This document shows, one piece after another, positions 25,901 through 56,284 of a DNA stretch of 64,000 nt. A model generated the notes under the pieces. The model saw only the letters and a program-made list of their open reading frames with translations, was not told the DNA's origin and did not search any database. The stretch comes from a virus (Duplodnaviria; Caudoviricetes), in the IMG/VR virus record IMGVR_UViG_3300025924_000020, positions 1 to 64,000 of that record. One strand, written 5' to 3'. The translations under genes and the position numbers were made by a program. Each line of letters begins with the position of its first letter. The stretch's first letter is position 1.

Positions 25901-28900
25901 TAAATACGTTAAAGACAATCTAGCCTCCTCATTCAAAAGTAATGACTTTACTAATCTTAAAAAAGTAATGTACTTTCCTGAGTTATCAACAGGATACTTT
26001 ATTGCTAAAGATAAGAAAGGTGCCGCTAAAACTCCAGATCTATTCACGTTACCTAAAGCTACTAAAAATAACAGAATAACATTGTTTAAGAGTGGTACTG
26101 GTAAGTATACGTTAGGTATTCCACTTAAGTCTAGTCAGACAGGGAATAGGGTATGGACCACGTTAGAAGGAAACGATATTCAAAATTTCCTATCTAATAA
26201 ACCTGCCAGTATTACATTCCATGCTATTGTAGAAGGTAAATATGCTAAGCGTAAGGAAGTAAGAACTCCAGAACAGTATGCTAGTATTTTGTCTACTATG
26301 AATTCATTGATTGACTCTCAAAGTAGACAAGTAGATTTTGATCAAGTAAATAAAGAAGCTCTTTATACTGATCCAGTGACTAACCAAGAATACACGAACT
26401 ATTATGATTTCTTGAAGGCCACTAATACAGTACAGACATACTTGCGAGGATCGAACACAATTGGATTTGGTCAAGATAATTCTTTCTCTTATGGCTCAAC
26501 AACGGTATACCTGGACTCTTCGCCTAAAGATATTAAGACTGACATAGATCCTCAGACTGAAGAGCTAGAAAAAGTGGAACAAACACCTCCACCTAGCGCA
26601 CCAATAGAGTTAGGCCCTACAACTCCAATATCTCCAGAAGAAATAGAAGAAGAGTTTGGTCCTAAGTATAAACATTTCTCATTTGAGAATACTACCTTCA
26701 ATGTAATAGGAGAGAAAGAACTTCAATGGTTTAAGAATAACTACGGAGAAGAGTTCTTGGATATTGCGATAGGTGTAGATAAGTTTATTGGTGCTAATGG
26801 AGTAGAAGCTTTTGGTAGTTATTACAATGCATTGGTAACTCTAGCTCAGTATGCTCCAGAAGGAACGACTTATCATGAAGCTGGGCACTTTGTATTTGAT
26901 CCAAAGAATAAGTTAATTACAAAACTTGAGCGTGAAAAGATACTTAAAGAAGCTAAAAAGATTTATGGGGAGCTAAAGGACAACTATCTTGAAGAAAAAA
27001 TTATGGAAGATTTTGAGAGATATAAACTCTCAGATGGCAAGTATCTTCCAGAGGTTTCTAGAACTAAAAGCTTCTTCTCTCGTATTCTTCAATTCATTAA
27101 GAAATTGTTAGGCTATAAGACAGAGATTCAAAAACTATTTGAAAAGATAGATACGCCTAATCTATCTATTGAAGATAGAAAGACACTTTATGAGAATAGA
27201 TCAAAGTTAGTTGATCCAGATCAAATTCTTAATAAAAGATTACCTGGCTTTATTTCTTCTCGTTATGAACAAGAAGCTCTTATTTCAGCTAGAAGTAAAG
27301 CTATCGCGATTGCTTCAGAAGGTTTAAAGCAGGTGAGTGATGTAACTAAGTTCTTGAGTAATAGTATTAATCTAACTAAAATTCTTGATCAAGTTAAGGA
27401 CTATTATGCTAGACTAGCACAGAATTTAGAAGCTGTAGGAGATAAGCGAAATAAAGAGCAGACACTACAGTTAATGACCTTAAATGCAATGGGAGTAACT
27501 AAGACTCCTGGATATGAGAAATATCAAGGATCTTGGGATGATATAACTTATGGACCTATTAAAGAAGATGGATTTAAAAGTAAGCTATTACAGGTATTCA
27601 GTGACCTAGGATTTGTAGTCAAGTATGATCTAGACAAAGTAGAAGCTCAGGAGCAAGATGAAGCAGAGAGAATCTATGACGTAGACTCAAGTTTGATCAA
27701 CCCATCTTCCTCTATTTCAAATAGAGTTAGATTATTGTTGCATTCTATTCCATCCCCAGTTGTAGATTCTAAGGGGCAAGTAATAGATAGTCAAAAGACG
27801 CTATTTGGAGATATAAAACCTCTTGATTTCAGATCTGCAGATGCAATGTTGGCACTTAAGCTAAGTGATGCTATTGACCCTTATGAGAGGCTACAAAGTT
27901 TAGCTAAGCTTAACCCAATAGCTAGAGTAATTCTCAATAAACTTGATGAAGTTAAATCTTCAGGAGATAATCAAACTTTCACTGAAGTGATGGTTAAATA
28001 TCGTAGGGATAGTAATGACAAGAAGACTATTCTACTTCAGGAGAAAGAAGTGTTTGTACCTGTAGCTGAGCGTGGGCCAGACGGTCAAGAAACTACTAGG
28101 GTATATACTTCTAGATTCATAGATGCTAACCGTAATTCTGTATTTCGTACTATTCTAAATAACTGGAGGTCAGAAGCAGAAAGAGTGAACCTTATTACTC
28201 CTACTGGTGAACTGACTACTAAAGCTAAAAAAATAGCTACTGACTTTGCTAGCCTCAAGGCTAAACAAAATACAATAGCGTTTGAACCGTTACTTAGTCA
28301 ATTCCAAACAATATTAAAAGAACTTGGAGTAACGCTTCCAGATGGTCTTATTGCTGAACTACAGTCACTAGACACTCAATATGTTAAAGCTGTACAACAA
28401 GCTAAAGCACGTGAATTAAAACTTAAGAGTTTAGTATTTGGTGAAAACAGCGCTAGCTTGGAGGCTTTAATCAACACTTTTAATAGTGATATACAAGTCA
28501 GCTCTCCATTTGATGGTAAGACTAACGTGCTTGAAAAATTAGCTAAAGCATCAGCTATCTATTATGATTCAGTTAAGACTGGGGCATATCTGAATGAGAA
28601 TGGTGACTTGGAATATCCAATAAATCTACCATCTTATTTGAGTGAGTTTGCTAGTTTATTAAATAGTCCTGATAAGCTAAATGAATGGGTTAATACCTTA
28701 GAACAAGATGAATTCTATAAAGATAATCAATTCATAGCTACTCTTAAACAAGCTATTAGAGGAAAGCAACTAAGCAAAATCAGATTTAGCTTACTCTCTG
28801 CCATTCGTGATAAAGATAGTGATGCAAAGATGTTTGGAGATAGAAGTGAGATTGACTCATTAGTCTCACGACTGGTGTCTTATTTTAATAATGAAACTCA

Positions 28901-31900
28901 CAATGATAAGTCAGAGTATGCTTCAATCTTTATAGGTACTCCTGCTAATAAAGCTAAAGATCCTATGATGAATCTTCCTAAGAAGAGAGGAGATGAAGCG
29001 TATGCATTCCTGAAAAAAGTTTTAGCTAATACTGTACTTAATGAGATTTCTAGAATACAGAATATCAAAGATAGTCTCGGTAAACCTAGGGTAGGTAATA
29101 ATCCACTTCCACAAGAAATAAACAATCTTAAGAATGCTACTAAATTCATTTACTTACCTGAGCTAAATGAGATAGAAGGATTAGCAGATTCATTATCTAA
29201 TGGTGAGATATCTGCAGACAACTATAAAACTGCTAAGGCTAAACAAGAGCAAGTCATCAATAATTGGATTGACCAAAAGTACGATTCATTCTTGAACCTT
29301 CTTGAATCAAATGATATCATTAGGGTGAATAGAAAGAGTGGTAGAGTAGTTAATATCTCCAACACTCGTATTCCAAAAGATATAATCAATCTTTATGGTA
29401 CCCCAGCTAAATTCTTGAAAGAGTTCTTCTACAATGACACAGCATACAGACTGGAAATGTCTAAAGTCTTCATGGGAGATTTGGCATTCTATAAACCAGG
29501 TGTAGATGACTATTTTAAGCGTATGTACCAGCTAGTAACTCCAGGTTACAAAGCTTATACTGATAAGGAAACTAGTATAGTAAGAGGTATTTATCCAGCA
29601 CAGAAGAAGATTGAATTGCCTGAGATTAATAGCCTTAAAGAACTGGGTTTGTCTGACTCTGTAGCTAATAATTATAAGAGAGGTGTTAATAAGACAGATG
29701 CACAATCCTTATCCACCATTCATGGTTATAGGACCCTAGCTAAAGCTCTTGGCTTATGGAATGACTTTACTCATGAGAAAATCTATCAGGTAGCTTGGAA
29801 GTACAATGAGCCAGCTAGACAACAGATAAAGAAGTTAACTCTACTTGGAGAAATTACTGAACAGGAAGCCAAAGATCTTAATGGTATTCTATTCAATTTA
29901 GATCTACAACCTCTTAAACCATTCCAGTATAACGATAGATTTATTGACTTACCTAATGGTAAGAGAATGCTATTAAAGGAACAGTTTAAGGATTCTATTA
30001 CCCCTATTTTACCTGAATTAGCTAATACTCATCAAGGCTACAAAGAACTGCACGATTATATGCTAGGTAATGGCTTTGATGTACTATCGGCTGAAGATGC
30101 TGTAAAAGTAGGCAGCTATGGAGTTCTTGATATGACTCAACCTGCAGAAGCTTGGCAGAAAAGAAGAGTAAGTTTAGATGATATTCGTTTTCCTCAGTTT
30201 ATGCCTTCTAAAAAGAAGGAAGAAACTTCAGGTACACAGTTACATAAACTTATTATGGGTGATGTACAGGATAAGACAGACTATAGCCTTAATGATACTA
30301 AGATCTCTGGAGTTGACTTGAAAGCTGATTATAATAAACTTTGGGTAGAAAAACTAGAGAATGGAGTAACTAAGCTTAAGGATTTACTAGGAATGGGAGA
30401 TGATTTCAAGTTCTCAAACAATCCTAATAAGAAGATTGAGCAGTTACAGAAACTTCAGTTAGTCCTTAAACAAGAGTTAAACCAGAGAGATCTAAATGAT
30501 AATTATAAAGATGCTATTAATTTAACCCTATCTCAACTAAAGGGTATAGAGTTTAATATGCCTCTTTCCTTCCCTCAAATTACTAAGCCATTTGAAGGAA
30601 TCATTGTTAAGTTGTTTGATAAGTACGTTACTAGTCAAAAGAGTACTGGTTACACAGCTGTAAATTTAGCCGATTTTGGAGTACAGAAGAGTGATGAACT
30701 TAGATATGTACGTAATGAAAATGGACAGCTAGTCGAAGCTGAAATCGGTATTGCTATCAATCCAAGTGAATTTGGATTACGTTATGGCGAACATATCTCG
30801 CCTACAGGTAGAGTGATATGGGATAAATTAAATAATAACCAACAAGAAGCGTTACAGTACATCGCTTATCGTATTCCAACTTCCAATAAGAGTTCGATGC
30901 TACCAGTTCGTGTGGCTATGATCTTACCTAAGACCATGAATAATATAGTCATGATCCCTGGTGAAACTACTCTACAAATGGGTTTGGACTTTGATGTGGA
31001 TAAAACACAGTTACTACGTAGAGTAACCAAGGATGGTAAAATAGATAAGGCTCACGTAGATACTAAGTTATTTAATATCTATTGGTCAGTATTGACAAAC
31101 AAAGAGCATTTGAACGCAATGCTAACACCATTATCAACTGCTCGCTTAGAAGCAATTAAAGACAACTATACCAAACGTGGTATCTTAACTTCAGAGACAA
31201 ATCAATCACCCTTCACTCTAGAAGCCGATATTAAAGCTCAAACAAAGAATAGAGAAGAGAAGGTAAAAGTTGGTGGTGCTTCTAGAGCAGCTACCGCACA
31301 TAGTGTTATTCAGATGCTTGGTGAAGAAGCAATACAAATAAATCCTCTATTTGATATTAAGATAGCTCGTAAAGGACCTCTTAGATTTGGTCATATGACT
31401 TCTCAAGATGGTAGTTTAATATCTGAGAACTTAGGAGAAATACAGCAGGCAGCACTTGATGCGGCTAAAACGCCATTGTTAGCTATTTTCAATATTACCA
31501 AGAAACTTCTTTCTCCAGCAGAGACATTAGTGATGCTTGGTTATGATCTTAGAACTGTTACAGACTTCTTCATGCAGCCTGTAGTCAGAGAATGGTCTAG
31601 TAACTATATAAAAGAAAATGAAGACGATTTAGCTGCTACTGAAAGCTTCTTAGAAGCTCATCCAGAAGTGGGTAGTGTCATCAACAATTTACGTAAGCAA
31701 GGAAGTAGACCTACACTTAGCTTAGATGCTCTTAGTCAAGCGTTAACTTCTAAAGTAGGTGAGAATCCTATACACGATGCGGCTGTACTTCTTGAACTAG
31801 GTAACTTATTGCAAGCAGGTAAATTGTTGTCTAACTTCACGAATGTGCTTAGCTTAGATACTTTTGGAGATACATCATCCATAGAATCGTTACAAGTTAT

Positions 31901-34900
31901 GGCTCAACAAGTAATGGAGTCTACTAACACAGATAACAACTTCTATATTGATCCTAGAGTATTTAGTATGGAGAAAGCTCCAACTAATGCTAAGAGAATT
32001 GCTGCCTTCCATGAGTATAGCTTAGAGAAACCACTTGTATTAGCAAATGAGATATTCCCTAGTACTAATATTCACTACCAAGCAGCTAGGGATTATATTC
32101 TTGAAGCTCTTACTTTACGTAAGACTAACAAAGATTTGCTAACGAAAATTAACAAGTTTATACACTTCTATAAATTACAGCACGACTCAGCGCTGTCCCT
32201 TGCACTTGGTAAAGTATCACCTACTAAAGAGCCATATACTTCTAGGTGGAGATTTACAGAGCCAGGAAACACTATTGTTGAGTACTTTAGCAAGTTTATG
32301 AAGAACGCTAAGAAGAATCATCCTGGACTGTTCAATGAACAAGGAATGATACAGAATAAACTACTAGCTAGTATACAAATTCAAACTTTCTCGAATAACG
32401 ATAAGTTAGCTATGTTAACTGTAAATAATGTTACAGATGATAACAATAGCGATCTAGTATTGGCTTGGAATGATTTGCTTAATGCTAAATCAGAGGAAGT
32501 TAGAACCTTAGCCCACGATTTAATTAGATATGCAATTTATACGTCTGCTTTTAATTACAGTCCTACTTCATTTGCAGACTTGATTCCAACTGATATCTGG
32601 AAAACAACTGGATTGGCTAATTATTGGGAAGACAATAGAAATTCTAGTATTGACAATGAAGGTCTACTACTTAATTTTGTTAGACATAATTACAAAAAGA
32701 TTAAGTTCTTCCCTCAATTCTTTATTACCTCTAATGGTAGATCACAATCTATCATAAAATCAAGTAGGGTAATGGATGATAAAGGTATACTTCAAGCTTT
32801 TCAAATTAGTAAGGAATACAAGCAGGCTGAGGTATTACCTAGATTCGCTATTGTAAAAGGAAGATTGTATGAACAATCACCAGCCAATCCATATTCCTAT
32901 AAACAATTACAAAGTGCTGGTGGAGATAACTTTTATGAAGTATCAACAGATGGAAGAAATCTTTCAAGAAATCCAGTAAACAAAGATGATGGCTCTCCTA
33001 ATCCCTGGAAGAATGCTATTGTACGTAAAGATGAAGAACTAAAAACTACTGATCCTAGACTACAAGTTGAGAATAGGCTAAGAACTTTTGAGCTAGGTAC
33101 TTTAGAAGGTAAACCTCAAACCGATCAAGAAAATGATAACCTTCACAACAACATGATTAATTTTCCTGAAAAAGGAATGGTTAATGGTGGTGAGACATTT
33201 GAAGAAGCTTCTGATCGTGTAATTTCTCTAATGAAAGATTTAACTAAGAATGCTGCAAATAACAGTGTTATAGTAACTCACAATGCTGTATTTGGAATTA
33301 TTAAAGTATGGGATCAAGAAGGTAGGCCAGATTCTCTAAATAAAGAGCAGAGAATAAAATATACCAAACAGGATAACACAGTAGCAACTGGTTCACACTT
33401 TACAATTAAGACTAGTAAAGGAAAATTATTTGTGGTTAGGCATGGTGAAACCACAGATAATGTAGCTAAAGTGTTTAGAACTCCATCAGCTCAGCTTACT
33501 CAGAAAGGTATAAAGCAGGCTGAAACTGCAGCTAAGGCACTAGCTATATTCCAGATCCCAATGATTATTACGTCACCAATGGAAAGAGCTGTAGAGACTT
33601 CTAGAATCATTTTAAAAGCTCAAGGGGAAGTACAGAAATTCAATCAACCTGCTTTGTCAGATAGTGATATAATAGCTACAAATCCATTTATAGAGTACTA
33701 TCTACCTAACCAAAGCAATGATCCTAAAACTGTACTTGAACATCTTATTAAAGATGAAACTAATCCAGAAAACAGGCAAGCATTACAACATTTACTTGAT
33801 AACGTATCTAAAATAGACGCTAAAATAGATGTTACTGCAGATGATATGTTGGGTTTTATGGGTAGATATGAAGTCATCACAAATAATGGTAATCTTGTTA
33901 GTTCAGTAGTTAAAATAAACCCTAACACTAATTCCATAGATTCTCAAGCAAGTGCTAGGGCTGTAATACATCATGAATTGGAACATGCATTCACAGTAGG
34001 TGTGTTAAAGAATCCACAGACTGAATTGGAGAAAAACTTCAACACAAATTTAAGTAGAGTATTAGAAGAAGCTAGACAAAAATTAGGTATAGTCTACTAT
34101 ACTGAAAATAAATTTGAATTTATAGCTGAGTTAGCTTCAAATGAAGCCTTTAGACAGAAACTTAGAGGGGCCGACTTGTGGAGTAGAATTATTCGTTCAA
34201 TACGCAAGGTATTAGGAATGAAAGACTCCTACGATAAACTTATAGAACAAAGGTATGAAGTTATTTCACAAGGAGAAAAACTAGAAAGAAGTAGTGGAGT
34301 ACTGGGTAAACCTGAAAATAAAAAACCAGGTAAAAAGCAGTTAACTATTTTTGAAAGCATGTTATCTTCTCTGGACTCTAGAGTTAGAGAATTAAAGAGA
34401 AGAAGAGGTAAAGAATCTGCTATAGAAACTGAAGCTGAATTAAAAGTACTCAAAGAACTAGCTAAGAAGAACGAGTCTGCAATGGCAGTCAGATACTTAG
34501 TGTATGTCAATAAGGAAATAGCTAAGCTTAAATCTATCTATGACTTGATGGATAAGACTCCAGAGAAGTTGAATGCTAAATTAATAGCTCCAATGTATGA
34601 TCAATTACTATCATACAATTTACTTGACGAGTTACTGAAAGATGCTAAGACCAACCCAGATGCGTATGTGGGTAAGACTGGTGATATCAAGCAATTTATC
34701 ACTGAAGTAAATAATCTAAGAGGTGAAGTGTCTGATTTACGACTAAAATTAGAGCACCTTATTCCATATAGAGTAGCTAGTTTCATTAAAGATAATATTC
34801 GTCAAGGTCAGAGCTTTGAAGAGGTAGTAGATTCCCTTAAAGTAGCAAATGGTGATGTAAGCTATATAGCTAGATGGTTAACTCCATTTATTGAAGTGAA

Positions 34901-37250
34901 TGATGACACTGTTAAAGCATTTGCTCAACGTTATGCTGAAATTGATATGGAAGCGTATCGTAAGACTCAAGAGGAATTATACAAATTTGATAAAGTACAG
35001 CAGAAGACTACTGTTAATTTAGGTAGCAACAGACGAGTAACAATAGAGTATACTTCAACTGGTGTAAATAAGGCTCTTGATGATTATGACAAGTGGTTAA
35101 AAAAGAAGGGAAAGAACCCAGGTTCTATTAGAGATAAATTTGATCCTATCCTAGATAAAGCCTCCTTTAATAAGGATACGAGTGAAGGTATTTCTTTTAT
35201 AGCTCCTTGGACTAAGGAGGGTAAAGCAATCCTTTCCATTAAAGAAGGATCAGAAGACTATCCGTTAAAGCAGTTGTATGAAACTATTGTTCTAAATTAT
35301 CTCAAGTCTCAAGAAGAAATTAAACTTCCATCTCAACGCCCAGGATTACGTATACCAACTATTGGAAGAGATGTAATGGAAGGATTCTTGAAAGAAAAAG
35401 GTATTAAGGAGACTGCTGGTATGATGAAAGAGCAATTCCTGAATAACTTCATTGAAAGATTCGATGATAATGAGTATCAACAAGTAGACCAACATGGTAA
35501 TGTAATTAAGGCTATTCCATTACGCTATACTTCTAAACAGGATGGTAAGGATGGTAGATTAAACCTAAACGAAGTAAGTTTAGATGTAGCTTCCACCACT
35601 ATGTTATTTCGTCATGAAATGATTAAAAGACCTATGCTTCTAGCAATACAAGATGATGTAGAATTAGCTAAAACACAATTGGCTCAGCGTGAAGTAATGC
35701 AAACTAAACGCATTGAAGCAAGTGGTTTAACTCCATTCCTATCTTCTGAAAGAGAAGGTGTCGTATTAGAGAATGGCAAATATCAGACTATAAAAGGTTT
35801 AGAATCTAAAGCTTACAATGCTTTTCAAGACTTGATTGATCGTAAACAGTACGGTATAGTTAAGAAACGTGAAGGAGATATCAAAATTGGAGAGAAGAAA
35901 GTATCAGCTTCTAAAGCCCTAGATGCTTTCTTAAGATTCAGTGGATTTAGAATCATGTTTGGTAAAATTGCTATTCCTTTAGCTAACTGGAGTGTTGGTG
36001 AACTCACAATGATTAAAGAAATGATTGGAGGGAATATTATTGATTACAAAGATTATCTCTATGGACAGAAGAAGTATAATCAAGTAGCTCTTTCATCACT
36101 TTCTGATTTAGGAAGAAGAGCTAAACAAACTGAGTGGGGTAAGTTATTCACTTACTTCAACCCAATGGATAATCTACGTCCAGTTAATACACTAGGAATA
36201 GACACGACTTGGATGAGAACAGTATGGCATAAGATTATCTCTACTGGAGGTCATACAGTTGAGTATAAACTAGCGGTAAACGCTTTAGGAGCTGTAATGA
36301 ACAGGTTTAAGGTAGTTAATCCTGAAGGTAAGTTAGTCCCTATGGATCAGGGAATACACATCTCTGATGCTGGTAAATTAACTCTAAAATCAGGTTATAA
36401 ATATGCTGGAAAACAAGGTAAGCAATATGAAAAGCCTAAGACTGAAATTAGTGACAAGGATATTAACGAAGTAATACAATATACTCTACGTACTTATCAG
36501 CTAATGAACGGTGTGTATAATCAAAGTGATAAATCAGCTGCTCAAGCTTATACAGTAGGCCGTCTAGTAACCTTTATGCGTAATTGGTTAGTTCCAGGCT
36601 TACAAGCTAGATGGAATACAAAGCATTCAGATCAAAGATTAGGTATGGAGAATGAAGGATACTACATTTCTTCTTTAATAGCCTTCAATAATATTTATGG
36701 TAAGAACGGATTCTTGAAGGGTACATTGGATTCTCTCAAGATGCTGTTCTGGTTAGGAGCTAGTGATCCTACAACTCTACTTTTACCTAATGAATTAGCT
36801 CTTTCTCCTGAAGAGCAAGATGATTTGATCAATATGCGTAAAGCCAATATCAGAAAGACCCTATTTGAACTTTACATGATTGCTGGATTAGGTTTGCTTA
36901 TCTTTGCTGGATATGATGACGATGATGATAGTTACATGAAGTATATGGCAGCTAGAATCAAACGTGAATTAACCACTTATTATGATCCTACTACAGCTTG
37001 GGATGTGTTAAGATCACCTACAGTAGCCCTTTCAACTATAGAAGCTACTTCTAAATTGTTAGGTACAATGACTGATGGTGGGTGGAATTATCTTACAGGG
37101 AATGAGCAAGAGATGATTAAGTCAGGAGCTTACAAGGGATACGGTAAAGCAGAAGCAGCTTTCTGGAGAGCTTCAGGATTAGATTTCATGAAGCAGTTTG
37201 AGGATATAGATCGTAAGACAGATTTTGTACTTAAAGGAGCATACAGATAA
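22905..37250 (+). CDS. Giant virion RNA polymerase polyprotein (4781 aa) with two zincin-like HExxH motifs and a histidine phosphatase domain
   Basis: YRIPT...GLDFDVDK catalytic DxDxD (DFDVD at 30987-31001), HEAGH (26874-26888), HELEH (33972-33986), RHG (33438-33446). Confidence 0.88.
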   Translation: MSDGKDKQYTNIRLAGGESSPVNTPYNGSNLGLNYIPGTPGDPSGVEAYLNENQGLAHTFTNWAAQSLSGAVLGTIESASYLADLEQLKDKIQGSEQEYDNWLAKAMREAKENVKEAAPIYRSKEGQETFSPGSRSFWTSNSPDVISSVLSLLIPGAVAGKAGKMAAAGFKFGEAAQAGSELVAATLTSRYAESTMEANQVFQDGYKQYLQQRMPDEQARELAGQAASRTFNTNWILAIQDLYQYNSILKGFGKAAKAKSLLGIAGETAGQMISEGAEEGLQYVFSEEAKKAGANKGHGYFGDEFWNQRLSDYITSDEFKTNVALGAVGGGVFGGVGPAVQKGADMLRKQKSDIIDSLAKERANLMNDFGTSKKIDSDRLANNALQHLANGKLDKWIDTVEELKKVPDLEPDTRRDLDQHKDELTELVNINSQIKDSKIPKDLQSTAVADHYDVMRSTRLGKELEGKLNEQYNTLPKLGLPENLLTLKKEKINLEAIKELATKEPAYAPLAQMLANKFQDNLTALEPNKDLRRDLETQLITPKDKELVLLNKQIALNNSHVRQLKNKIAKYSTPEGVAQLSAEKAQKTANEVAKAAINKPNVTATEIKQAQSTVTDPQVQQQLGEKLNQIVEEQKDNNKATVDSELSKLEELPQEVLPTPENFSPEMMEQSPEDITPDMLEPNPEASLEPSEVQKTAASFGIGNEILSQLEVEKPTPKQKAVTSKAKTKERVRNTQLEESTAKSWLKEYQSHKDKDGNWVEDRDPLGFPIEQQYFAADGSLVPAHKIFATDENGVLLINTPQIKVGDKVLLVREDSFPYTITKGFKPTSDLNSVINVYQVDKNGHKIGDKPLFQLDSADSPNLSPAQQASNLRLRQQITVWGPNELVTTIQAKNIGTVKRGTNLQSISVLEHDYMGDNYVKLPHGAILGIVDHQGHFTFKGDNIVSLPKQTQDKLDELMLNYAKDAENLIGSTIVARTAPDGSYRMETLTYRQMTPEETKYVKDNLASSFKSNDFTNLKKVMYFPELSTGYFIAKDKKGAAKTPDLFTLPKATKNNRITLFKSGTGKYTLGIPLKSSQTGNRVWTTLEGNDIQNFLSNKPASITFHAIVEGKYAKRKEVRTPEQYASILSTMNSLIDSQSRQVDFDQVNKEALYTDPVTNQEYTNYYDFLKATNTVQTYLRGSNTIGFGQDNSFSYGSTTVYLDSSPKDIKTDIDPQTEELEKVEQTPPPSAPIELGPTTPISPEEIEEEFGPKYKHFSFENTTFNVIGEKELQWFKNNYGEEFLDIAIGVDKFIGANGVEAFGSYYNALVTLAQYAPEGTTYHEAGHFVFDPKNKLITKLEREKILKEAKKIYGELKDNYLEEKIMEDFERYKLSDGKYLPEVSRTKSFFSRILQFIKKLLGYKTEIQKLFEKIDTPNLSIEDRKTLYENRSKLVDPDQILNKRLPGFISSRYEQEALISARSKAIAIASEGLKQVSDVTKFLSNSINLTKILDQVKDYYARLAQNLEAVGDKRNKEQTLQLMTLNAMGVTKTPGYEKYQGSWDDITYGPIKEDGFKSKLLQVFSDLGFVVKYDLDKVEAQEQDEAERIYDVDSSLINPSSSISNRVRLLLHSIPSPVVDSKGQVIDSQKTLFGDIKPLDFRSADAMLALKLSDAIDPYERLQSLAKLNPIARVILNKLDEVKSSGDNQTFTEVMVKYRRDSNDKKTILLQEKEVFVPVAERGPDGQETTRVYTSRFIDANRNSVFRTILNNWRSEAERVNLITPTGELTTKAKKIATDFASLKAKQNTIAFEPLLSQFQTILKELGVTLPDGLIAELQSLDTQYVKAVQQAKARELKLKSLVFGENSASLEALINTFNSDIQVSSPFDGKTNVLEKLAKASAIYYDSVKTGAYLNENGDLEYPINLPSYLSEFASLLNSPDKLNEWVNTLEQDEFYKDNQFIATLKQAIRGKQLSKIRFSLLSAIRDKDSDAKMFGDRSEIDSLVSRLVSYFNNETHNDKSEYASIFIGTPANKAKDPMMNLPKKRGDEAYAFLKKVLANTVLNEISRIQNIKDSLGKPRVGNNPLPQEINNLKNATKFIYLPELNEIEGLADSLSNGEISADNYKTAKAKQEQVINNWIDQKYDSFLNLLESNDIIRVNRKSGRVVNISNTRIPKDIINLYGTPAKFLKEFFYNDTAYRLEMSKVFMGDLAFYKPGVDDYFKRMYQLVTPGYKAYTDKETSIVRGIYPAQKKIELPEINSLKELGLSDSVANNYKRGVNKTDAQSLSTIHGYRTLAKALGLWNDFTHEKIYQVAWKYNEPARQQIKKLTLLGEITEQEAKDLNGILFNLDLQPLKPFQYNDRFIDLPNGKRMLLKEQFKDSITPILPELANTHQGYKELHDYMLGNGFDVLSAEDAVKVGSYGVLDMTQPAEAWQKRRVSLDDIRFPQFMPSKKKEETSGTQLHKLIMGDVQDKTDYSLNDTKISGVDLKADYNKLWVEKLENGVTKLKDLLGMGDDFKFSNNPNKKIEQLQKLQLVLKQELNQRDLNDNYKDAINLTLSQLKGIEFNMPLSFPQITKPFEGIIVKLFDKYVTSQKSTGYTAVNLADFGVQKSDELRYVRNENGQLVEAEIGIAINPSEFGLRYGEHISPTGRVIWDKLNNNQQEALQYIAYRIPTSNKSSMLPVRVAMILPKTMNNIVMIPGETTLQMGLDFDVDKTQLLRRVTKDGKIDKAHVDTKLFNIYWSVLTNKEHLNAMLTPLSTARLEAIKDNYTKRGILTSETNQSPFTLEADIKAQTKNREEKVKVGGASRAATAHSVIQMLGEEAIQINPLFDIKIARKGPLRFGHMTSQDGSLISENLGEIQQAALDAAKTPLLAIFNITKKLLSPAETLVMLGYDLRTVTDFFMQPVVREWSSNYIKENEDDLAATESFLEAHPEVGSVINNLRKQGSRPTLSLDALSQALTSKVGENPIHDAAVLLELGNLLQAGKLLSNFTNVLSLDTFGDTSSIESLQVMAQQVMESTNTDNNFYIDPRVFSMEKAPTNAKRIAAFHEYSLEKPLVLANEIFPSTNIHYQAARDYILEALTLRKTNKDLLTKINKFIHFYKLQHDSALSLALGKVSPTKEPYTSRWRFTEPGNTIVEYFSKFMKNAKKNHPGLFNEQGMIQNKLLASIQIQTFSNNDKLAMLTVNNVTDDNNSDLVLAWNDLLNAKSEEVRTLAHDLIRYAIYTSAFNYSPTSFADLIPTDIWKTTGLANYWEDNRNSSIDNEGLLLNFVRHNYKKIKFFPQFFITSNGRSQSIIKSSRVMDDKGILQAFQISKEYKQAEVLPRFAIVKGRLYEQSPANPYSYKQLQSAGGDNFYEVSTDGRNLSRNPVNKDDGSPNPWKNAIVRKDEELKTTDPRLQVENRLRTFELGTLEGKPQTDQENDNLHNNMINFPEKGMVNGGETFEEASDRVISLMKDLTKNAANNSVIVTHNAVFGIIKVWDQEGRPDSLNKEQRIKYTKQDNTVATGSHFTIKTSKGKLFVVRHGETTDNVAKVFRTPSAQLTQKGIKQAETAAKALAIFQIPMIITSPMERAVETSRIILKAQGEVQKFNQPALSDSDIIATNPFIEYYLPNQSNDPKTVLEHLIKDETNPENRQALQHLLDNVSKIDAKIDVTADDMLGFMGRYEVITNNGNLVSSVVKINPNTNSIDSQASARAVIHHELEHAFTVGVLKNPQTELEKNFNTNLSRVLEEARQKLGIVYYTENKFEFIAELASNEAFRQKLRGADLWSRIIRSIRKVLGMKDSYDKLIEQRYEVISQGEKLERSSGVLGKPENKKPGKKQLTIFESMLSSLDSRVRELKRRRGKESAIETEAELKVLKELAKKNESAMAVRYLVYVNKEIAKLKSIYDLMDKTPEKLNAKLIAPMYDQLLSYNLLDELLKDAKTNPDAYVGKTGDIKQFITEVNNLRGEVSDLRLKLEHLIPYRVASFIKDNIRQGQSFEEVVDSLKVANGDVSYIARWLTPFIEVNDDTVKAFAQRYAEIDMEAYRKTQEELYKFDKVQQKTTVNLGSNRRVTIEYTSTGVNKALDDYDKWLKKKGKNPGSIRDKFDPILDKASFNKDTSEGISFIAPWTKEGKAILSIKEGSEDYPLKQLYETIVLNYLKSQEEIKLPSQRPGLRIPTIGRDVMEGFLKEKGIKETAGMMKEQFLNNFIERFDDNEYQQVDQHGNVIKAIPLRYTSKQDGKDGRLNLNEVSLDVASTTMLFRHEMIKRPMLLAIQDDVELAKTQLAQREVMQTKRIEASGLTPFLSSEREGVVLENGKYQTIKGLESKAYNAFQDLIDRKQYGIVKKREGDIKIGEKKVSASKALDAFLRFSGFRIMFGKIAIPLANWSVGELTMIKEMIGGNIIDYKDYLYGQKKYNQVALSSLSDLGRRAKQTEWGKLFTYFNPMDNLRPVNTLGIDTTWMRTVWHKIISTGGHTVEYKLAVNALGAVMNRFKVVNPEGKLVPMDQGIHISDAGKLTLKSGYKYAGKQGKQYEKPKTEISDKDINEVIQYTLRTYQLMNGVYNQSDKSAAQAYTVGRLVTFMRNWLVPGLQARWNTKHSDQRLGMENEGYYISSLIAFNNIYGKNGFLKGTLDSLKMLFWLGASDPTTLLLPNELALSPEEQDDLINMRKANIRKTLFELYMIAGLGLLIFAGYDDDDDSYMKYMAARIKRELTTYYDPTTAWDVLRSPTVALSTIEATSKLLGTMTDGGWNYLTGNEQEMIKSGAYKGYGKAEAAFWRASGLDFMKQFEDIDRKTDFVLKGAYR

Positions 37251-50942: not shown

Positions 50943-51318
50943 ACTTCCTTAACTTGTTAACCATTTTCATGAAATCAGTCATGTACAGAATAGCAAATTT
51001 ATCTTTAGTGATAAACCTACTGTTTACTTTTTCTGTTTGATTATGTAGTATGACATTCACAATATTAGCTTCTTTGGGCATCTCAGATAGTATCTTGCCA
51101 TATGTTAAATGACCTTTTACATTCTTACATTGTACTGACCAAGGTAATCTACCATGTAAAATCTCATCTTGATTCACCAGATCTATCCCTTGATTATCTC
51201 TAGCTCTGTTTGCACTTCTAGATGTTACACAATTAACGAATCCAACTTTCCTAAATTCATTAGCACAATCCCTCTCAAATTTATGACCACTAGCTCGATT
51301 TCTCTTACCGTTCGTCAT
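50890..51318 (-). CDS. PD-(D/E)xK nuclease, Holliday junction resolvase-like
   Basis: GHKFER...GIDL...VQCK. Confidence 0.75.
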   Translation of the reverse strand: MTNGKRNRASGHKFERDCANEFRKVGFVNCVTSRSANRARDNQGIDLVNQDEILHGRLPWSVQCKNVKGHLTYGKILSEMPKEANIVNVILHNQTEKVNSRFITKDKFAILYMTDFMKMVNKLRKYESTISRPVVSTTGGGA

Positions 51319-52109
51319 AATACCTCTTCTGAATTCATAATCATTTTAGCCCGATTTAAAAACTCCTCTTGAGTTAATTTAGGTTGTGGCGGCACTAAAT
51401 ACTCTACTATTTGTGCCCTAGTTAAATGTTCTACTTTAATCTGTTTGAGATCATCTAGTGGACTTTCAGTTTTAAATGCATTATCTGTATAAGTCTCTCT
51501 AACTACCTTTATATCACTATAGGGTAGTGTCACTGGTTTTTCAGTATAGATACATGCCCTAACGTACTTCAAATGTTTAGCTTTGATTAGCACTAAATAT
51601 AGGGGTGTAAATACAATCTTATCAGTTCTGTAATCAGCTAGCCCAGGGTAAAAAGTATTTCTTATTGATGCAATTGTCTGTCTACGATTGCTGGTATAAG
51701 TTACTAGTCCAAAGTCTCCTATTATAGAAGCTGTTTCGGTTCTTCCCCATTCTGGAGAACTAAATGTAAATCCACGAATAGAATTACCTGATGAGGTTGA
51801 ATCACCATAGTGTAGACAGTATTTGTCAACTACAGGACTATCGAGAATCTCTACTAAATTTTTCTTAACTAGTTTATCAAACTTTTTTTTCCAATTTTCA
51901 CTTCTATCTTCTCTACCCTGCCATCTAGAAGCGATAGTAGAATAGGCTAATGTATCTTTATCATTATAATACATTACGCTAAGGTCACCAGTTTTAAAGA
52001 CAGGTAATAACTGTGCACAAAATAATGGCACAAATTGCTCTCCGCTTGATATTTTGATATATCCCTGGTGATGCATTCCCGCATAGACGTCTTTTGCCTT
52101 TATATGCAT
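51315..52109 (-). CDS. Hypothetical protein coupled to the E1-like gene
   Basis: Overlaps the ThiF gene stop; no recognised motif. Confidence 0.5.
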   Translation of the reverse strand: MHIKAKDVYAGMHHQGYIKISSGEQFVPLFCAQLLPVFKTGDLSVMYYNDKDTLAYSTIASRWQGREDRSENWKKKFDKLVKKNLVEILDSPVVDKYCLHYGDSTSSGNSIRGFTFSSPEWGRTETASIIGDFGLVTYTSNRRQTIASIRNTFYPGLADYRTDKIVFTPLYLVLIKAKHLKYVRACIYTEKPVTLPYSDIKVVRETYTDNAFKTESPLDDLKQIKVEHLTRAQIVEYLVPPQPKLTQEEFLNRAKMIMNSEEVL

Positions 52110-52846
52110 AATTCTTCTACTTTAGGTTGTTCAAATAACATTAATGGTAGATTAAAATCTAACTGTGTTATTACTTCTCTAGGTAGCACTTTAGGTACTT
52201 GGTTATTAAACCAATTTGTAATTTGGGATACCATTAATGCACTTATTAAGGCCCCACAGTGAGTAGTAGCCTTCATAGTACATTGAGCTTCAGGTAATTC
52301 ACTATCATCAAAACAAGAGTTTCTATAATGACTTATAGTTTCTTCTGAGCTATCTTTTGGTATAGCAAATACGTTACCTTGCTCCATTGACATTCTACCA
52401 TCAACAAATAAGGATATTTCTTTACCATACTTTAGCCATAATTCAAAGACTATCTTTCTAGCTGCAATATTATCAAATGATACACAGACTACATCGATAG
52501 CCCTTAACATAGAAGCTATAGTTGGGTCATCCTCCTCTATTTTGTGGTTAAGGGGTGTTAGTTTAGTCTCTCCACATAGATAAGTTACAACTTCAGCCAT
52601 CGCATCTACCTTAGACTTACCTACATGGTCTTTACCGTATAGCTGTCCAGCAATATTATGCAATTCGACATCATCATAATCAACTGTAACTAGTTCAGCG
52701 CCAGTTCTAGCTAAGAATAAAGTTAGATTAGAGCCTATACCCCCTTGACCACAAATTAAGATTGAACTACTAGAAATACCTTCAAACCAAGGTGCTCCCT
52801 TAAATCTACCGTAATACTCAGCAGTGTTCTTTTTTGTACGTGTCAC
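52100..52846 (-). CDS. ThiF/MoeB/E1-like activating enzyme
   Basis: CGQGGIGS, DYDDVELHNIAGQ, GKSKV, FDNIAAR, DGRM, candidate catalytic Cys in EAQCTMK. Confidence 0.92.
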   Translation of the reverse strand: MTRTKKNTAEYYGRFKGAPWFEGISSSSILICGQGGIGSNLTLFLARTGAELVTVDYDDVELHNIAGQLYGKDHVGKSKVDAMAEVVTYLCGETKLTPLNHKIEEDDPTIASMLRAIDVVCVSFDNIAARKIVFELWLKYGKEISLFVDGRMSMEQGNVFAIPKDSSEETISHYRNSCFDDSELPEAQCTMKATTHCGALISALMVSQITNWFNNQVPKVLPREVITQLDFNLPLMLFEQPKVEELCI

Positions 52847-53879
52847 AGACAGTTTCGATTTTGTTTGCTAACCAATTATCATCATGCAACTTAACAAACT
52901 CCTTTACTGCATCAATGGCTTCTGCCTCTTTAATGTTAGTATTGAAGAAGTAAGCATCAAACCAATAGCTTTTAAAGTACTGCATAAATGCTTTCTCATA
53001 AGTTGGTAAAGCTGCTGTAGTAACTAAGGTATTGGCTTTATTTAAAGCATCTTTAGGAGCTATGTTCTTAGGGTCGTGACCCAACAGGAGCAACTCAGGT
53101 ATTTCATTGAGTACTTTTCGATAAATATTCTGATCTACACCTTCAGGTTTATAAACCTTATTTACACTACTGTTAGTAGAGCTTTTATGATCAAAACCTA
53201 TTCTATTAGGTACATAAACCGTTGTTTTCCTGTTCTTCAATTCAACTTCTTCAATTTGATTGATAAGCCATTCCTCACCTTCATAAACGGTATCACAAGG
53301 AACTATAATTACACCTTTCCTCTTTTCTTTCTTCTGGTGCTTAGTAATTTGTTTCTTCAACCATTTTGGTATAGACCATGTTTCAACTCCTTCAATCTCC
53401 TTTTCGTATTCGATAGAGATCTCAGAGAACGGTTGACAATCATAATTGCATACAACAGATAAAAACATTGGACTAGTAGGCGCATTGTCTACTAAGTCTT
53501 GAGTGTCTATACCTGAGTGAAATGCTCTCATGTTATGATGTGAGTGCAATTTACCAATATAATATCCGTTATCTTTATCTTGTCTTGTAGGGTCTATCTG
53601 TGGGAACAATTCGAAGAATTTAATCCAGCTTTCATTTCCTTCAAATGAAGTAAATGTAGCATCGCCAAAATCCATAAGGAATACATTCTCACAGGTTAGT
53701 TCCAATTCTGCTTCATCGTTGTCTAGAAATTCTTCTACACTACCTTTGGTAACTTTGTACACCAATAACCCAGACCATTCTTTATTGGTTGGACATTGAT
53801 TATGTAGAAGTGTTATTTGAGCTTGAAGCTCTGTTGTTAGCAGTACTTCTGCTCTTTTTTGTAATTTAAATGTTTCCAT
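52818..53879 (-). CDS. JAB/MPN+ (JAMM) metalloprotease
   Basis: EWSG plus HSHHNMRAFHSGID, matching E...HxH-x7-S-xx-D. Confidence 0.85.
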   Translation of the reverse strand: METFKLQKRAEVLLTTELQAQITLLHNQCPTNKEWSGLLVYKVTKGSVEEFLDNDEAELELTCENVFLMDFGDATFTSFEGNESWIKFFELFPQIDPTRQDKDNGYYIGKLHSHHNMRAFHSGIDTQDLVDNAPTSPMFLSVVCNYDCQPFSEISIEYEKEIEGVETWSIPKWLKKQITKHQKKEKRKGVIIVPCDTVYEGEEWLINQIEEVELKNRKTTVYVPNRIGFDHKSSTNSSVNKVYKPEGVDQNIYRKVLNEIPELLLLGHDPKNIAPKDALNKANTLVTTAALPTYEKAFMQYFKSYWFDAYFFNTNIKEAEAIDAVKEFVKLHDDNWLANKIETVCDTYKKEHC

Positions 53880-55086
53880 TAAGTTTTGGAATATCTGAAA
53901 ATATGTTATTTATTTCTTTCACTACCCTTCTGAAGAATGCATGTGACACTCTTAGGATAGTCTCATCTGTTGATTTTTCTACGGTCTCTGGTATGATCCT
54001 AAATGTTCTATTATACCAATGCTCTAATACTTGGCGACACTCTAATGGTAAATCACCATAAGTTGGAGGTCTACTATTAGAACCATTCCTAGCATTGTCA
54101 AGCATGTAACTGTTCATTGATAGGTTATATTTGAGAAGATCACTGGAGTGTATACTAGCAGCTAGCATTTCAGTAACTTTCCTCTCTATTTCAAACATCT
54201 TTTTACTAATTTCAATACTAGATAGCGACAAATAATTATCACCATTATTATGTGTAATCATATCTGGTGTAAGTTGTTCGATTACTAATATAGCAAATTT
54301 TCGTATAATTTGATTTGAAGAATACACGCCGTTACTCGCTGTATCGGTTAGTGGAGTAACACTTTTTAAGTTACTAATTGAAATATAAGGATTACCCTCT
54401 AAACTTTCCCATGATAAATAAGCATTTAGTTGAGCTAAGTATAACCCAAATTCTGCAGGAGTTAGACTGATTTTAGCTTTCTCATAGATCTTGGACATTG
54501 GTGTACCTGAACCCATACAAAAACTTTGAAAGTTATACAGATCTTGTCGTAAATGAGAATGTCCATAGATGTTATTTACTTCTCTTTGACTTAATGCTGC
54601 TCTCCACCCATACATGGCATTAAAACAAGTTTGAGTGTTGTTAACCGAAAGCTTAATTATTAGGTCTTCGACAGTGTGGGTTTCACCAGTATCATTAGTT
54701 AATGTTATACTAGGATATCTAAGATAGATACAACCATTGCTTCTATTAATCCAATAATTACCAGGCATTTCAATCTGCAGAATCTTCTCAGCTATTTCAT
54801 AGATATCATCTTCTGTTTCTACTATAGTACTACTATCTGGTAGAAGTATGAACCGTCTTTCTAAAGTAGGAATGCATGTCACTTCGTAAACGCCCCTATC
54901 AAGATATCTAGTCCCTACTGACCGCACGGGTATCTTTTCTGGCCATGCAGTTCCTCTCCAAGGACTTATAGTATTAGAATAATTTAGTCTTAGGTTACCA
55001 TCCATAGCCCAAAAGGCCTCAGAGCTACCTGATGTACCATTGTACTTAAGAATTTCTTCTTTTGTTGTTTTTAACGTTTTTATCAT
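53866..55086 (-). CDS. Putative prokaryotic E2-like conjugating enzyme
   Basis: GHSHL-x9-FCMG resembles the E2 His...Cys active-site region; lies between the Ubl and JAB genes. Confidence 0.55.
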   Translation of the reverse strand: MIKTLKTTKEEILKYNGTSGSSEAFWAMDGNLRLNYSNTISPWRGTAWPEKIPVRSVGTRYLDRGVYEVTCIPTLERRFILLPDSSTIVETEDDIYEIAEKILQIEMPGNYWINRSNGCIYLRYPSITLTNDTGETHTVEDLIIKLSVNNTQTCFNAMYGWRAALSQREVNNIYGHSHLRQDLYNFQSFCMGSGTPMSKIYEKAKISLTPAEFGLYLAQLNAYLSWESLEGNPYISISNLKSVTPLTDTASNGVYSSNQIIRKFAILVIEQLTPDMITHNNGDNYLSLSSIEISKKMFEIERKVTEMLAASIHSSDLLKYNLSMNSYMLDNARNGSNSRPPTYGDLPLECRQVLEHWYNRTFRIIPETVEKSTDETILRVSHAFFRRVVKEINNIFSDIPKLNGNI

Positions 55087-55098
55087 AATTTATAATGT

Positions 55099-55129
55099 AA
55101 AAAAGTCTAGGTTTTACCCTAGACTTTTT
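55099..55129. terminator. Bidirectional terminator-like hairpin
   Basis: AAAAAGTCTAGG-TTTTAC-CCTAGACTTTTT perfect inverted repeat. Confidence 0.75.
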
Positions 55130-55137
55130 GATGTAAG

Positions 55138-55353
55138 TTAGAAGGGAACTTCGTCATCTATTGGATCGTGTGAACTTATATAGTTTACACTAGTACTATT
55201 TGATGCATACCAAGTAGGATTAATAGCTTGAGTATACACCATACCTGAACTTCCATAATCCATTGTTTCTTTAGAAGATTCCTCTGTCTTTACTACATTA
55301 CTTTCAGAAGATTGGTTAAAAAACCAATCTACTATTTGCTCAATTGTTTCCAC
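55138..55353 (-). CDS. Small disordered protein ending in an SSB-like tail (DDEVPF)
   Basis: 71 aa, S/T rich; overlaps the Ubl gene stop. Confidence 0.5.
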   Translation of the reverse strand: METIEQIVDWFFNQSSESNVVKTEESSKETMDYGSSGMVYTQAINPTWYASNSTSVNYISSHDPIDDEVPF

Positions 55354-55609
55354 GACCAGAATTGTTCTTACTCATTACAAAGTAGAGAGTAAAATCTCCT
55401 GCTGGGAGTGTTTGTGAATCTGAAGTAAGATTGATGCTTTGACCAGCGTATTTAATCAAAGCATTCATCCCACTAATAGCAAGTGCGCCAATCTTTGGTT
55501 CTTCTTCTTTCAATTGCCCCCATGTAGCAGCGGCTGAGAAAGTTTGACCAGAGGAGTTTTCTCCTCCTTGAGTAGAACCATAAGTAATCGATCTAGTTGC
55601 TTGTGACAT
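55340..55609 (-). CDS. Putative ubiquitin-like (beta-grasp) protein
   Basis: 89 aa; beta-beta-alpha (TWGQLK)-beta...LxxDxxxLPxG-DFTLYF followed by KNNSG-RGNN; upstream of the E2/JAB/E1 genes. Confidence 0.6.
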   Translation of the reverse strand: MSQATRSITYGSTQGGENSSGQTFSAAATWGQLKEEEPKIGALAISGMNALIKYAGQSINLTSDSQTLPAGDFTLYFVMSKNNSGRGNN

Positions 55610-55611
55610 TC

Positions 55612-55884
55612 TTAAGCAGCAAATTCAGTGTCAAGAATTGATTGTGCAGTCGTTAGATCTGCTTTGTTTTGTGCTACTTCAGCTGTCAATCCCATTACTT
55701 TCTCTACATTAAATGGAACTGCTCCAAGAGCATCATTGTATGCAGCAGCCAAAGTAGCTGATTGAGCTTTAAGTGAAGAAACTTTTTGTTCTACAGATGC
55801 ACGTGCATGTGCTTCTGAAGTTGTTGCCGATGCTTTCTTCTTTTCATCAGCTGATTGTTGGAGCCTATCCAAATATTTGGACAT
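55612..55884 (-). CDS. Small Ala-rich coiled-coil protein
   Basis: 90 aa, helical; ends 2 nt before the Ubl start. Confidence 0.55.
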   Translation of the reverse strand: MSKYLDRLQQSADEKKKASATTSEAHARASVEQKVSSLKAQSATLAAAYNDALGAVPFNVEKVMGLTAEVAQNKADLTTAQSILDTEFAA

Positions 55885-55936: not shown

Positions 55937-56284
55937 CTATTTTGTAAATGATTTGTTTCTAAAATGGAATAGATAAAAGACTGCATTACAGATAATATGT
56001 CCCATATGATGCAAACCTGATTCTGGATCGGTTTCTTCTTTATTGAATAAAGCCACCAAATGTCTCTGCATAGATTCTAAGATCTCTTCTCTATTTAATC
56101 CTTTCTTCCAATTGTCAGGAGCATATTTTTTACTACCAAACATCAGGACTTTAACGAATTCTTTGAGACTTTCCCAGTCTACCAAATTCCATTGTAGTTT
56201 ACCTTCATTGAATCGGTCTGCTTTCTTTACTTCTCCTCCTCCACTAATGGCTTCCCAGTCGTAGAAGTGTGTTATTTTATTCAT
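55937..56284 (-). CDS. dATP/dGTP diphosphohydrolase-like protein (DUF5664)
   Basis: KxxWxL...FGSKKYAPDNWKKG...RHL...DPESGLHHMGH. Confidence 0.85.
   Translation of the reverse strand: MNKITHFYDWEAISGGGEVKKADRFNEGKLQWNLVDWESLKEFVKVLMFGSKKYAPDNWKKGLNREEILESMQRHLVALFNKEETDPESGLHHMGHIICNAVFYLFHFRNKSFTK

Follow-up and report, generated by a model that had tools for sequence, protein, structure and literature searches.

A 64,000-nucleotide stretch of DNA, positions 1 to 64,000 of the Caudoviricetes record IMGVR_UViG_3300025924_000020, was analysed (hereafter the window). The source record is 94,962 bp long and rated complete, and its layout is that of a crAss-like phage, with a plus-strand block containing an open reading frame (ORF) of 4,781 amino acids (aa) and a minus-strand replication block. 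The replication block carries a cassette of seven consecutive minus-strand ORFs. Four of these form a core that, judged by its sequences and structure models, probably encodes a ubiquitin-like activation and conjugation pathway belonging to the phage itself and expressed together with the replication (middle) genes. The four genes encode, in order of transcription, a ubiquitin-like protein (Ubl), a protein resembling ubiquitin-conjugating enzymes (E2-like), a JAB/JAMM metallopeptidase and a ThiF-family protein resembling ubiquitin-activating enzymes (E1-like):

55340..55609, minus strand: Ubl, 89 aa, ending SKNNSGRGNN; beta-grasp up to Gly85 (codon 55355-55357), followed by a 4-residue tail, RGNN
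53866..55086, minus strand: E2-like protein, 406 aa, with HSHL-x9-FCMG; UBC-like core at residues ~93-240, HSH at 176-178, Cys190 codon at 54517-54519
52818..53879, minus strand: JAB/JAMM metallopeptidase, 353 aa, with HSHH-x6-S-x2-D; the JAMM motif H-x-H...S-x-x-D is encoded at 53505-53546
52100..52846, minus strand: ThiF-family E1-like protein, 248 aa, with EAQCTMK; Cys189 (codon 52280-52282) and Tyr174 lie in the C-terminal half

The seven ORFs had been singled out in an earlier note made from the sequence alone, which read them as a complete conjugation operon. In the ORF list all seven, and the motifs quoted for them, lie where that note had placed them, and the candidate Cys that it expected near nucleotide 54518 of the 406-aa gene is Cys190. 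Its description of the genes as mostly overlapping was also accurate: adjacent ORFs overlap by 4-29 nt or are spaced by 2 nt, the sole exception being a 51-nt gap 5′ of the 406-aa gene. Library matches of the flanking genes agreed with the proposed location between primase and resolvase genes. The upstream flank consists of the primase and a dATP/dGTP diphosphohydrolase-like gene, and the downstream flank of a resolvase-like gene and a uracil-DNA glycosylase gene. Within the cassette, only the 248-aa and 353-aa proteins matched the Pfam, NCBIfam and PADLOC libraries; the other five had no family in any of the three.

To define the conserved part of the cassette, IMG/VR was scanned first with the E1-like protein and next with the aligned 406-aa family, which yielded 39 loci on 37 contigs. 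ORFs were called at each locus and searched iteratively with hidden Markov models (HMMs) of each window protein. The 406-aa family was found at all 39 loci, the 89-aa family at 38, JAB at 37, ThiF at 36 and the primase at 35, and each absence coincided with the end of a contig. The order Ubl, E2-like, JAB, E1 was constant in 37/37 viral contigs wherever the sequence reached, at protein identities down to ~15-30%, and the cassette mostly started directly after the primase gene. Such an arrangement is conserved more than chance would allow. The remaining three ORFs were less widespread: relatives of the 90-aa protein occurred at 9 loci and those of the 264-aa protein at ~13 after iteration, while the 71-aa ORF had a counterpart at 1 locus, and there as a positional analogue only. 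The conserved unit is therefore four genes and not seven, so that the operon of the earlier note stands for its core and not for its 90-aa, 71-aa and 264-aa members.

A DNA-level search with the cassette against 50,697 phage records gave no match. At the protein level, tblastn found the E2-like family in the FpV phages of Flavobacterium psychrophilum, in Bacteroides phages and in uncultured crAss-like phages. The cassette is present in cr111_1, in the Flavobacterium FpV phages and in the cultured gut phage crAss001, whose gp79, gp78, gp77 and gp76 belong to the Ubl, E2-like, JAB and E1 families, respectively (own HMMs, 1.5e-23 to 2.4e-76). As the earlier note had stated for crAss-like phages, ThiF and metalloprotease genes are annotated there: the records of cr111_1 and crAss001 carry the labels 'thiamine biosynthesis protein, ThiF' and 'metalloprotease domain', and the two genes that separate these from the primase are labelled 'hypothetical'. 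The E1 of crAss001 (gp76; L046 1895-3046) has 383 aa, ~135 residues more than that of the window, and E1 architecture thus varies within the family. In crAss001, the genes for replication belong to the middle class and are turned on at 10-30 min post infection (PMC8375218). No relative of the E2-like protein was found when 185,579 prokaryote genomes were scanned by motif.

Folds and invariant residues of the core proteins

The AlphaFold2 (AF2) model of the Ubl, built from a 32-sequence alignment, had a mean predicted local distance difference test score (pLDDT) of 80.8 and the topology beta-beta-alpha-beta-beta-beta, with a disordered tail from residue 80. A Foldseek search of the PDB with this model returned solely Ubl/beta-grasp domains (probability ~1, TM-score 0.5-0.63), among them the TBCE Ubl, DIX, Caldiarchaeum ubiquitin, MoaD, SUMO and ubiquitin. 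Consistent with this result, the top 50/50 VIA-align matches were beta-grasp folds with Z up to 7.7, including BubA (9eav_C, Z 6.1), and the C-terminus of MoaD paired with residue 84 of the model. At the level of sequence the family stood apart. None of its 32 members matched a Pfam family beyond scattered chance matches, and its profile gave only noise against PDB sequences.

Gly85 and Pro69 were invariant in 32/32 sequences of the Ubl family, and the domain of ~76 residues ended K-x-K-[S/A]-G. Short forms (76-81 aa) terminated 1-4 residues past the Gly, and long forms continued for 50-250 poorly conserved residues more. As far as sequences and model can tell, these features mark a Ubl that is synthesised as a precursor and has a conjugating glycine, the pattern seen in ubiquitin. 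Because the Ubl of the window ends in Asn-Asn, adenylation of a C-terminal Asn in the manner of MccB was also considered; it was rejected because the terminal residue is not conserved in the family (K, F, I, E, D, R and others). In a marine or environmental phage contig (L013), two Ubl genes of 148 and 157 aa stand in tandem before the E2-like gene (4697-5143 and 5215-5688).

The AF2 model of the E2-like protein, built from 102 sequences, had a pLDDT of 87.1, exceeding 90 over residues 90-240, and a predicted TM-score of 0.82. In addition to the UBC-like core, it contained two further domains, a beta-rich one at the N-terminus (1-92) and an alpha/beta one at the C-terminus (240-406). In a wide VIA-align search, nearly all of the top 50 matches, which covered residues 93-240 (up to 365), were UBC, UEV or RWD folds at Z 5-6.3, and no competing fold appeared among them. 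The best UBC match was UBE2J2 (Z 6.3, root mean square deviation 3.9, 123 residues aligned); others were Ubc8, UBE2E1, UBE2K, UbcH5b, UBE2O, Tsg101 and BubB (9eav_D, Z 5.3). The secondary structure followed the order of an E2, namely a helix, a four-strand meander, an extended segment bearing HSH, the Cys 12 residues further on, and helices.

Residues N131, H178, C190, W226, E227, S228, G231 and P233 were invariant in the 102-sequence alignment, and H176, S177 and G192 were near-invariant, the first two being conserved in at least 90% of the sequences. Residue offsets in the UbcH5b and UBE2K alignments placed the catalytic Cys of these enzymes at model residues ~175-198, where Cys190 is the only Cys, and from these offsets we infer that Cys190 would occupy the E2 catalytic position. 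The family is large: a five-sequence HMMER profile retrieved 3,111 E2-like clusters (50% identity) at E<=1e-3 from 1.84 billion cluster representatives. As with the Ubl, no Pfam family was matched by any of the 102 members beyond scattered chance matches, and the family profile gave only noise against PDB sequences. A search of BFVD with the model returned uncharacterised crAss-like proteins only.

The 353-aa protein matched Pfam Prok-JAB weakly (1.8e-4, below the gathering score), 11 of 24 relatives also matched Prok-JAB, and a profile search gave a weak match to CSN5 across the motif. Residues E34, H112, H114, S122 and D125, which constitute a complete JAMM motif, were invariant in the 24 sequences. 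The protein, which also has a C-terminal extension of ~200 aa, is predicted from its sequence to be a Ubl-processing protease and is a possible deconjugase.

Inserts of ~1 kb interrupt the JAB gene exactly within the H-x-H codons in several relatives (L004, L013, L023 and L024), and the ThiF gene is also interrupted in L023 and L011. The regions concerned are 877-2964 in L004, 6836-9113 in L013, 6827-9138 and 9123-11053 in L023, 6821-9136 in L024 and 8035-9829 in L011. In Flavobacterium phage Fpv1 (L041 5845-8137) the JAB region is annotated as two parts flanking an insert. The inserts that were checked, two in L023 and one in Fpv1, encode LAGLIDADG homing endonucleases. The inserts are probably mobile introns lodged where conservation is highest; in Rfam, however, the L023 JAB and ThiF inserts matched no intron family at E<=0.01.

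The E1-like protein matched Pfam ThiF (7.4e-26) as a single domain over residues 22-216, and its PDB matches spanned one adenylation domain only. Its profile matched the adenylation domains of UBA5, MccB, ThiF, UBA3, UBA1, MoeB, the SUMO E1 and Cap2. Invariant or near-invariant positions among 25 sequences were GxGGIGS, D56/D58, N64, Q68, K79, D125-N126, R130, R151, Y174, F179 and C189. The nucleotide-binding and Mg/Arg motifs are intact. Cys189 lies 64 residues after the presumed Mg-binding Asp, a spacing that we take to be 57 residues in E. coli ThiF/MoeB and 67 in UBA5.

What the earlier note had expected of these proteins was thus borne out by the models and alignments: a beta-grasp fold for the 89-aa protein and a UBC fold with a conserved Cys for the 406-aa protein (the fold at modest Z), on both of which it had staked its interpretation, an intact JAMM protease, and a candidate thioester Cys in EAQCTMK that proved to be invariant across the relatives.

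Proposed pathway and alternatives

With folds, motifs, invariant residues, precursor pattern and strict four-gene synteny shown, we infer the chemical steps, the nucleophiles, the final acceptor and the purpose of the pathway as follows. The JAB would cleave the Ubl precursor after Gly85, with loss of RGNN in this phage and of the 50-250-residue extensions in others. The minimal ThiF-type E1 would adenylate the exposed Gly carboxylate and probably load the Ubl on its own Cys189, from which the Ubl would be handed on to Cys190 of the E2-like protein. Since the cassette contains no E3 gene, the N- and C-terminal extra domains of the E2-like protein would choose the target directly, and the Ubl would finally be attached to a lysine in a protein of the phage or of its host. 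The JAB may also take the tag off again. The purpose could be the control of replication proteins or an action on host proteins, host defences included.

Several observations weigh against this pathway. No E3, target or Ubl-binding partner was identified. The E2-like profile was unmatched in phi14:2 and crAss002, and the cassette is therefore not universal in Crassvirales. Neither the E2-like nor the Ubl family had a sequence link to known E2 or Ubl families in the libraries. Foldseek with the full 406-aa model against the PDB gave no match at E<=1e-3, the top row being a fungal Ube2O at 0.017. The UBC similarity itself is modest (5-9% identity at the Z of 5-6.3 given above), and middling Z values are common with this aligner. 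Finally, the invariant Tyr174 of the E1 and the near-invariant Ser177 beside His178 in the E2-like protein leave room for an oxyester route like that of Bub.

The tenuous ties of the 406-aa protein to known E2s would suit a scheme of activation without tagging, in which the Ubl, or a released fragment, is processed by the JAB and adenylated by the E1, and the 406-aa protein is a substrate, a scaffold or an unrelated Cys/His enzyme with no more than a resemblance to the UBC fold, for example in a regulated assembly or chaperone step of the kind proposed for the lambda tail proteins I and K. Phage Ubl and JAB pairs without E1 or E2 are indeed known from tail assembly clusters, as in lambda I and K (PMC1779556). 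However, the top 50 structural matches were coherent and offered no rival fold, and the invariant Cys is correctly positioned after an invariant His. In addition, the protein is always inherited together with an E1, and the one use that such an E1 is known to make of a Gly-ended beta-grasp protein is activation for transfer. We regard activation without tagging as unlikely, if the least so of the alternatives.

An oxyester route would have the Ubl conjugated by way of Tyr174 in the E1 and Ser177/His178 in its E2-like partner, with the invariant cysteines serving a structural role. Bub uses a Tyr of the E1 crossover loop and a Ser-x-His motif of the E2 (PMC11601596), the conservation of Y174, H176, S177 and H178 accords with such chemistry, and BubA and BubB were among the structural matches. 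On the other hand, Bub E1s are described in the same source as being without a catalytic Cys, whereas here a Cys is invariant in both enzymes. The motif in the phage protein is H-S-H rather than S-x-H and lies 12-14 residues ahead of the Cys, as in the canonical HPN...C of E2s. By the residue offsets of 9eav_D, moreover, Ser333 of BubB falls at model residues ~187-201, beside Cys190 and not at Ser177, and the cassette has neither the Ubl-E2 and JAB-E1 fusions nor the DUF6527 protein BubE. The chance that the phage proteins work in this way appears slim.

Least probable, and to our mind improbable, is a sulfur carrier, in which the Gly of a ThiS/MoaD/TtuB-type Ubl would be adenylated and thiocarboxylated for nucleic-acid or cofactor modification during replication, with the 406-aa protein as sulfur acceptor. 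In its favour, the E1 finds its best NCBIfam matches in ThiF/MoeB models, the structural matches of the Ubl include MoaD, whose C-terminus falls at residue 84, and the neighbours are nucleotide and DNA metabolism genes. Against it, all equivalog scores lie far below their cut-offs (best 82.7 vs 159 bits), a rhodanese domain is missing from the E1, the 406-aa partner is UBC-like and its Cys is invariant, and a dedicated JAB with long cleavable extensions better suits precursors of a protein modifier. The earlier remark that no thi or moa genes lie nearby extends to the whole 94,962-bp genome, where searches with PF05690, PF02391, PF00581, PF00266 and PF01171 found no ThiG, MoaE, rhodanese, PP-loop ATPase or cysteine desulfurase; control genomes were positive.

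Accessory genes and genomic setting

The other features of the cassette are three accessory ORFs and a hairpin:

55612..55884, minus strand: 90-aa protein, predicted to be helical, whose gene precedes that of the Ubl; accessory
55138..55353, minus strand: 71-aa ORF, ending DDEVPF; lineage-specific accessory
51315..52109, minus strand: 264-aa protein, translationally coupled to the E1 gene; variable 'fifth gene' slot
55100..55129, minus strand: 12-bp hairpin with a U-run, downstream of the Ubl/peptide genes and ahead of the E2-like gene; candidate attenuating terminator

The hairpin was predicted to be stable (ΔG -16.3 kcal/mol, z -6.6 vs shuffles), and the closest relative (L001) has a hairpin and U-run of different sequence at the equivalent position. 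Its location fits expression of the tag above that of its enzymes.

The slot after the E1 gene was nearly always occupied in the 36 loci with ThiF, by a gene of 119-455 aa that overlapped or abutted the E1 stop codon and belonged to one of several mutually unrelated families. The occupant in the window, the 264-aa protein, had no match in Pfam, PHROG or NCBIfam, and the ESM Atlas was uninformative. The products of this fast-evolving slot could be a specificity factor, a target or an inhibitor.

The relatives of the 90-aa protein did not always adjoin the Ubl gene. The possibility that this coiled coil is a split-off C-terminal extension of the long Ubl forms was rejected (hhalign probability 0.2).

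The 71-aa ORF had no HMM relatives in the 39 loci. Its analogue, a 49-aa ORF of L001 (5568-5717, plus strand), occupies the corresponding place, ends EEDDTPF and has no further detectable similarity. The acidic ends DDEVPF and EEDDTPF resemble the tail of single-stranded DNA-binding protein (SSB), and the small ORF may compete for SSB-tail binding sites. Proteins of 185-263 aa with similar SSB-like tails are encoded upstream of the primase in L014, L016 and L020. These proteins are not homologous to the 208-aa and 225-aa proteins of the window, and the idea that the acidic PF tail of the 71-aa ORF had been lost from an SSB-like neighbour was accordingly abandoned.

Between the primase and the cassette, a 115-aa protein (55937-56284, minus strand) corresponds to the N-terminal domain of dATP/dGTP diphosphohydrolase (Pfam 2.2e-26; PHROG 801), a hint that the phage may alter the dNTP pool or have modified bases in its DNA. 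The 4,781-aa ORF of the plus-strand block (22905-37250) presumably encodes a giant crAss-type virion RNA polymerase or cargo protein.

Relation to known ubiquitin-like systems

To our knowledge, bacterial Ubl conjugation has been shown only recently, in Bil, in Bub and, with Cap2/Cap3, in the cyclic-oligonucleotide-based antiphage signalling system (CBASS), and always as a host defence against phages. The cassette would place the same logic on the side of the virus, fixed in the replication module of a very large and abundant phage group whose public records label its genes 'thiamine biosynthesis protein', 'metalloprotease' or 'hypothetical'. The odds seem to us about even that crAss-like phages, including crAss001 (gp76-79), run their own Ubl conjugation in the replication phase, with covalent tagging of proteins of the host or the phage. 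No complete Ubl-E1-E2-deconjugase cascade would have been known from a bacterial virus before; this one would have Ubl and E2 families that lack cellular sequence relatives, and may be an offensive counterpart of defences of the Bil and CBASS type. If so, the phages have gained a post-translational tool for rewiring host or phage proteins, a function new to description, and two new sequence families (Ubl and E2) join the evolutionary picture of ubiquitin signalling. Neither the cassette nor crAss001 gp76-79 as such a unit was found described in the literature covered, which excluded most subscription journals. The question is directly testable in cultured systems that carry the cassette: crAss001 on its host Bacteroides intestinalis, and the FpV phages on Flavobacterium psychrophilum.

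Among known systems, PRTRC cassettes also combine a ThiF-family protein with small partners on a mobile element. The phage E1 scored 26.1 bits against PRTRC_ThiF (TIGR03736), compared with a cut-off of 144.75, PRTRC proteins A-F were unmatched and no ParB was present; the six remaining proteins of the cassette were without any NCBIfam match. The pairs ThiS/ThiF, MoaD/MoeB and SAMP/UbaA, the last with HvJAMM1, share with the cassette a small single-domain E1 and a Gly-ended beta-grasp protein. The archaeal SAMP/UbaA pair also conjugates proteins, and the JAMM enzyme HvJAMM1 reverses the tag. The ThiF/MoeB sulfur systems differ from the cassette in their equivalog scores and genomic sulfur partners, as described above, and in that the phage has an E2-like protein.

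Type II CBASS resembles the cassette in having an E1 adenylation domain with a JAB partner (PADLOC E1-E2 models 2e-16; PDB Cap2 6.5e-8). The PADLOC E1-E2 matches were, however, confined to E1 residues 22-142, and there was neither a CD-NTase nor an E1-E2 fusion; unlike CBASS, the phage cassette has a dedicated Ubl.

A phage-encoded Ubl with a Gly paired with a JAB is also found in the lambda/T1 tail proteins, where I is a Ubl with a conserved terminal Gly and K, a JAB plus NlpC/P60 protein, is predicted to release it (PMC1779556). These belong to tail-assembly clusters without E1 or E2, whereas the present cassette includes both enzymes and is located in the replication module.

Bub (6E) operons share several features with the cassette. 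As in Bub, the JAB would release the Ubl from a longer precursor, the E1 is minimal, of the homodimer type and without a separate Cys domain, and there is a conserved Tyr in the E1 and Ser/His in the E2-like protein; BubA and BubB were recovered by structure. Bub works through oxyester intermediates, and its Type I has Ubl-E2 and JAB-E1 fusions plus the serine protease BubE (PMC11601596); Type II is marked by an E2-E1 fusion. The phage genes are separate, DUF6527 was unmatched in all seven proteins, and Cys is invariant in the E1 and the E2-like protein. The absence of the fusions and of BubE and the presence of these cysteines keep the cassette out of Bub.

Bil operons are arranged as BilA (Ubl), BilB (E2), BilC (JAB) and BilD (E1) (doi 10.1101/2023.09.04.556158), that is, with the same four parts in the same order as in the phage, and neither has an E3 gene. 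The E2 of Bil has been proposed as the target selector, and the conjugating Gly of its Ubl is conserved, with a 2-9-aa overhang in some homologues (doi 10.1101/2023.09.04.556158; PMC11601596). Of these features the phage cassette has a beta-grasp Ubl with the Gly, a UBC-fold E2 with the Cys (at modest similarity), an intact JAMM and the gene order. It departs from Bil in its E1, a single 248-aa adenylation domain, whereas in BilD two adenylation domains stand in tandem and the Cys has a domain of its own (IAD-AAD-CYS; PMC11601596); in its 406-aa E2-like protein with two extra domains; and in its Ubl, one beta-grasp often with a long cleavable extension. Moreover, the cassette resides in the replication module of lytic crAss-like phages, whereas Bil is a bacterial anti-phage defence. 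Given the single-domain E1, the viral setting of the genes, and a Ubl and E2 without a sequence tie to known families, the cassette was not placed in Bil. It is a variant of the Ubl-E1-E2-JAB kind rather than a member of Bil or Bub.

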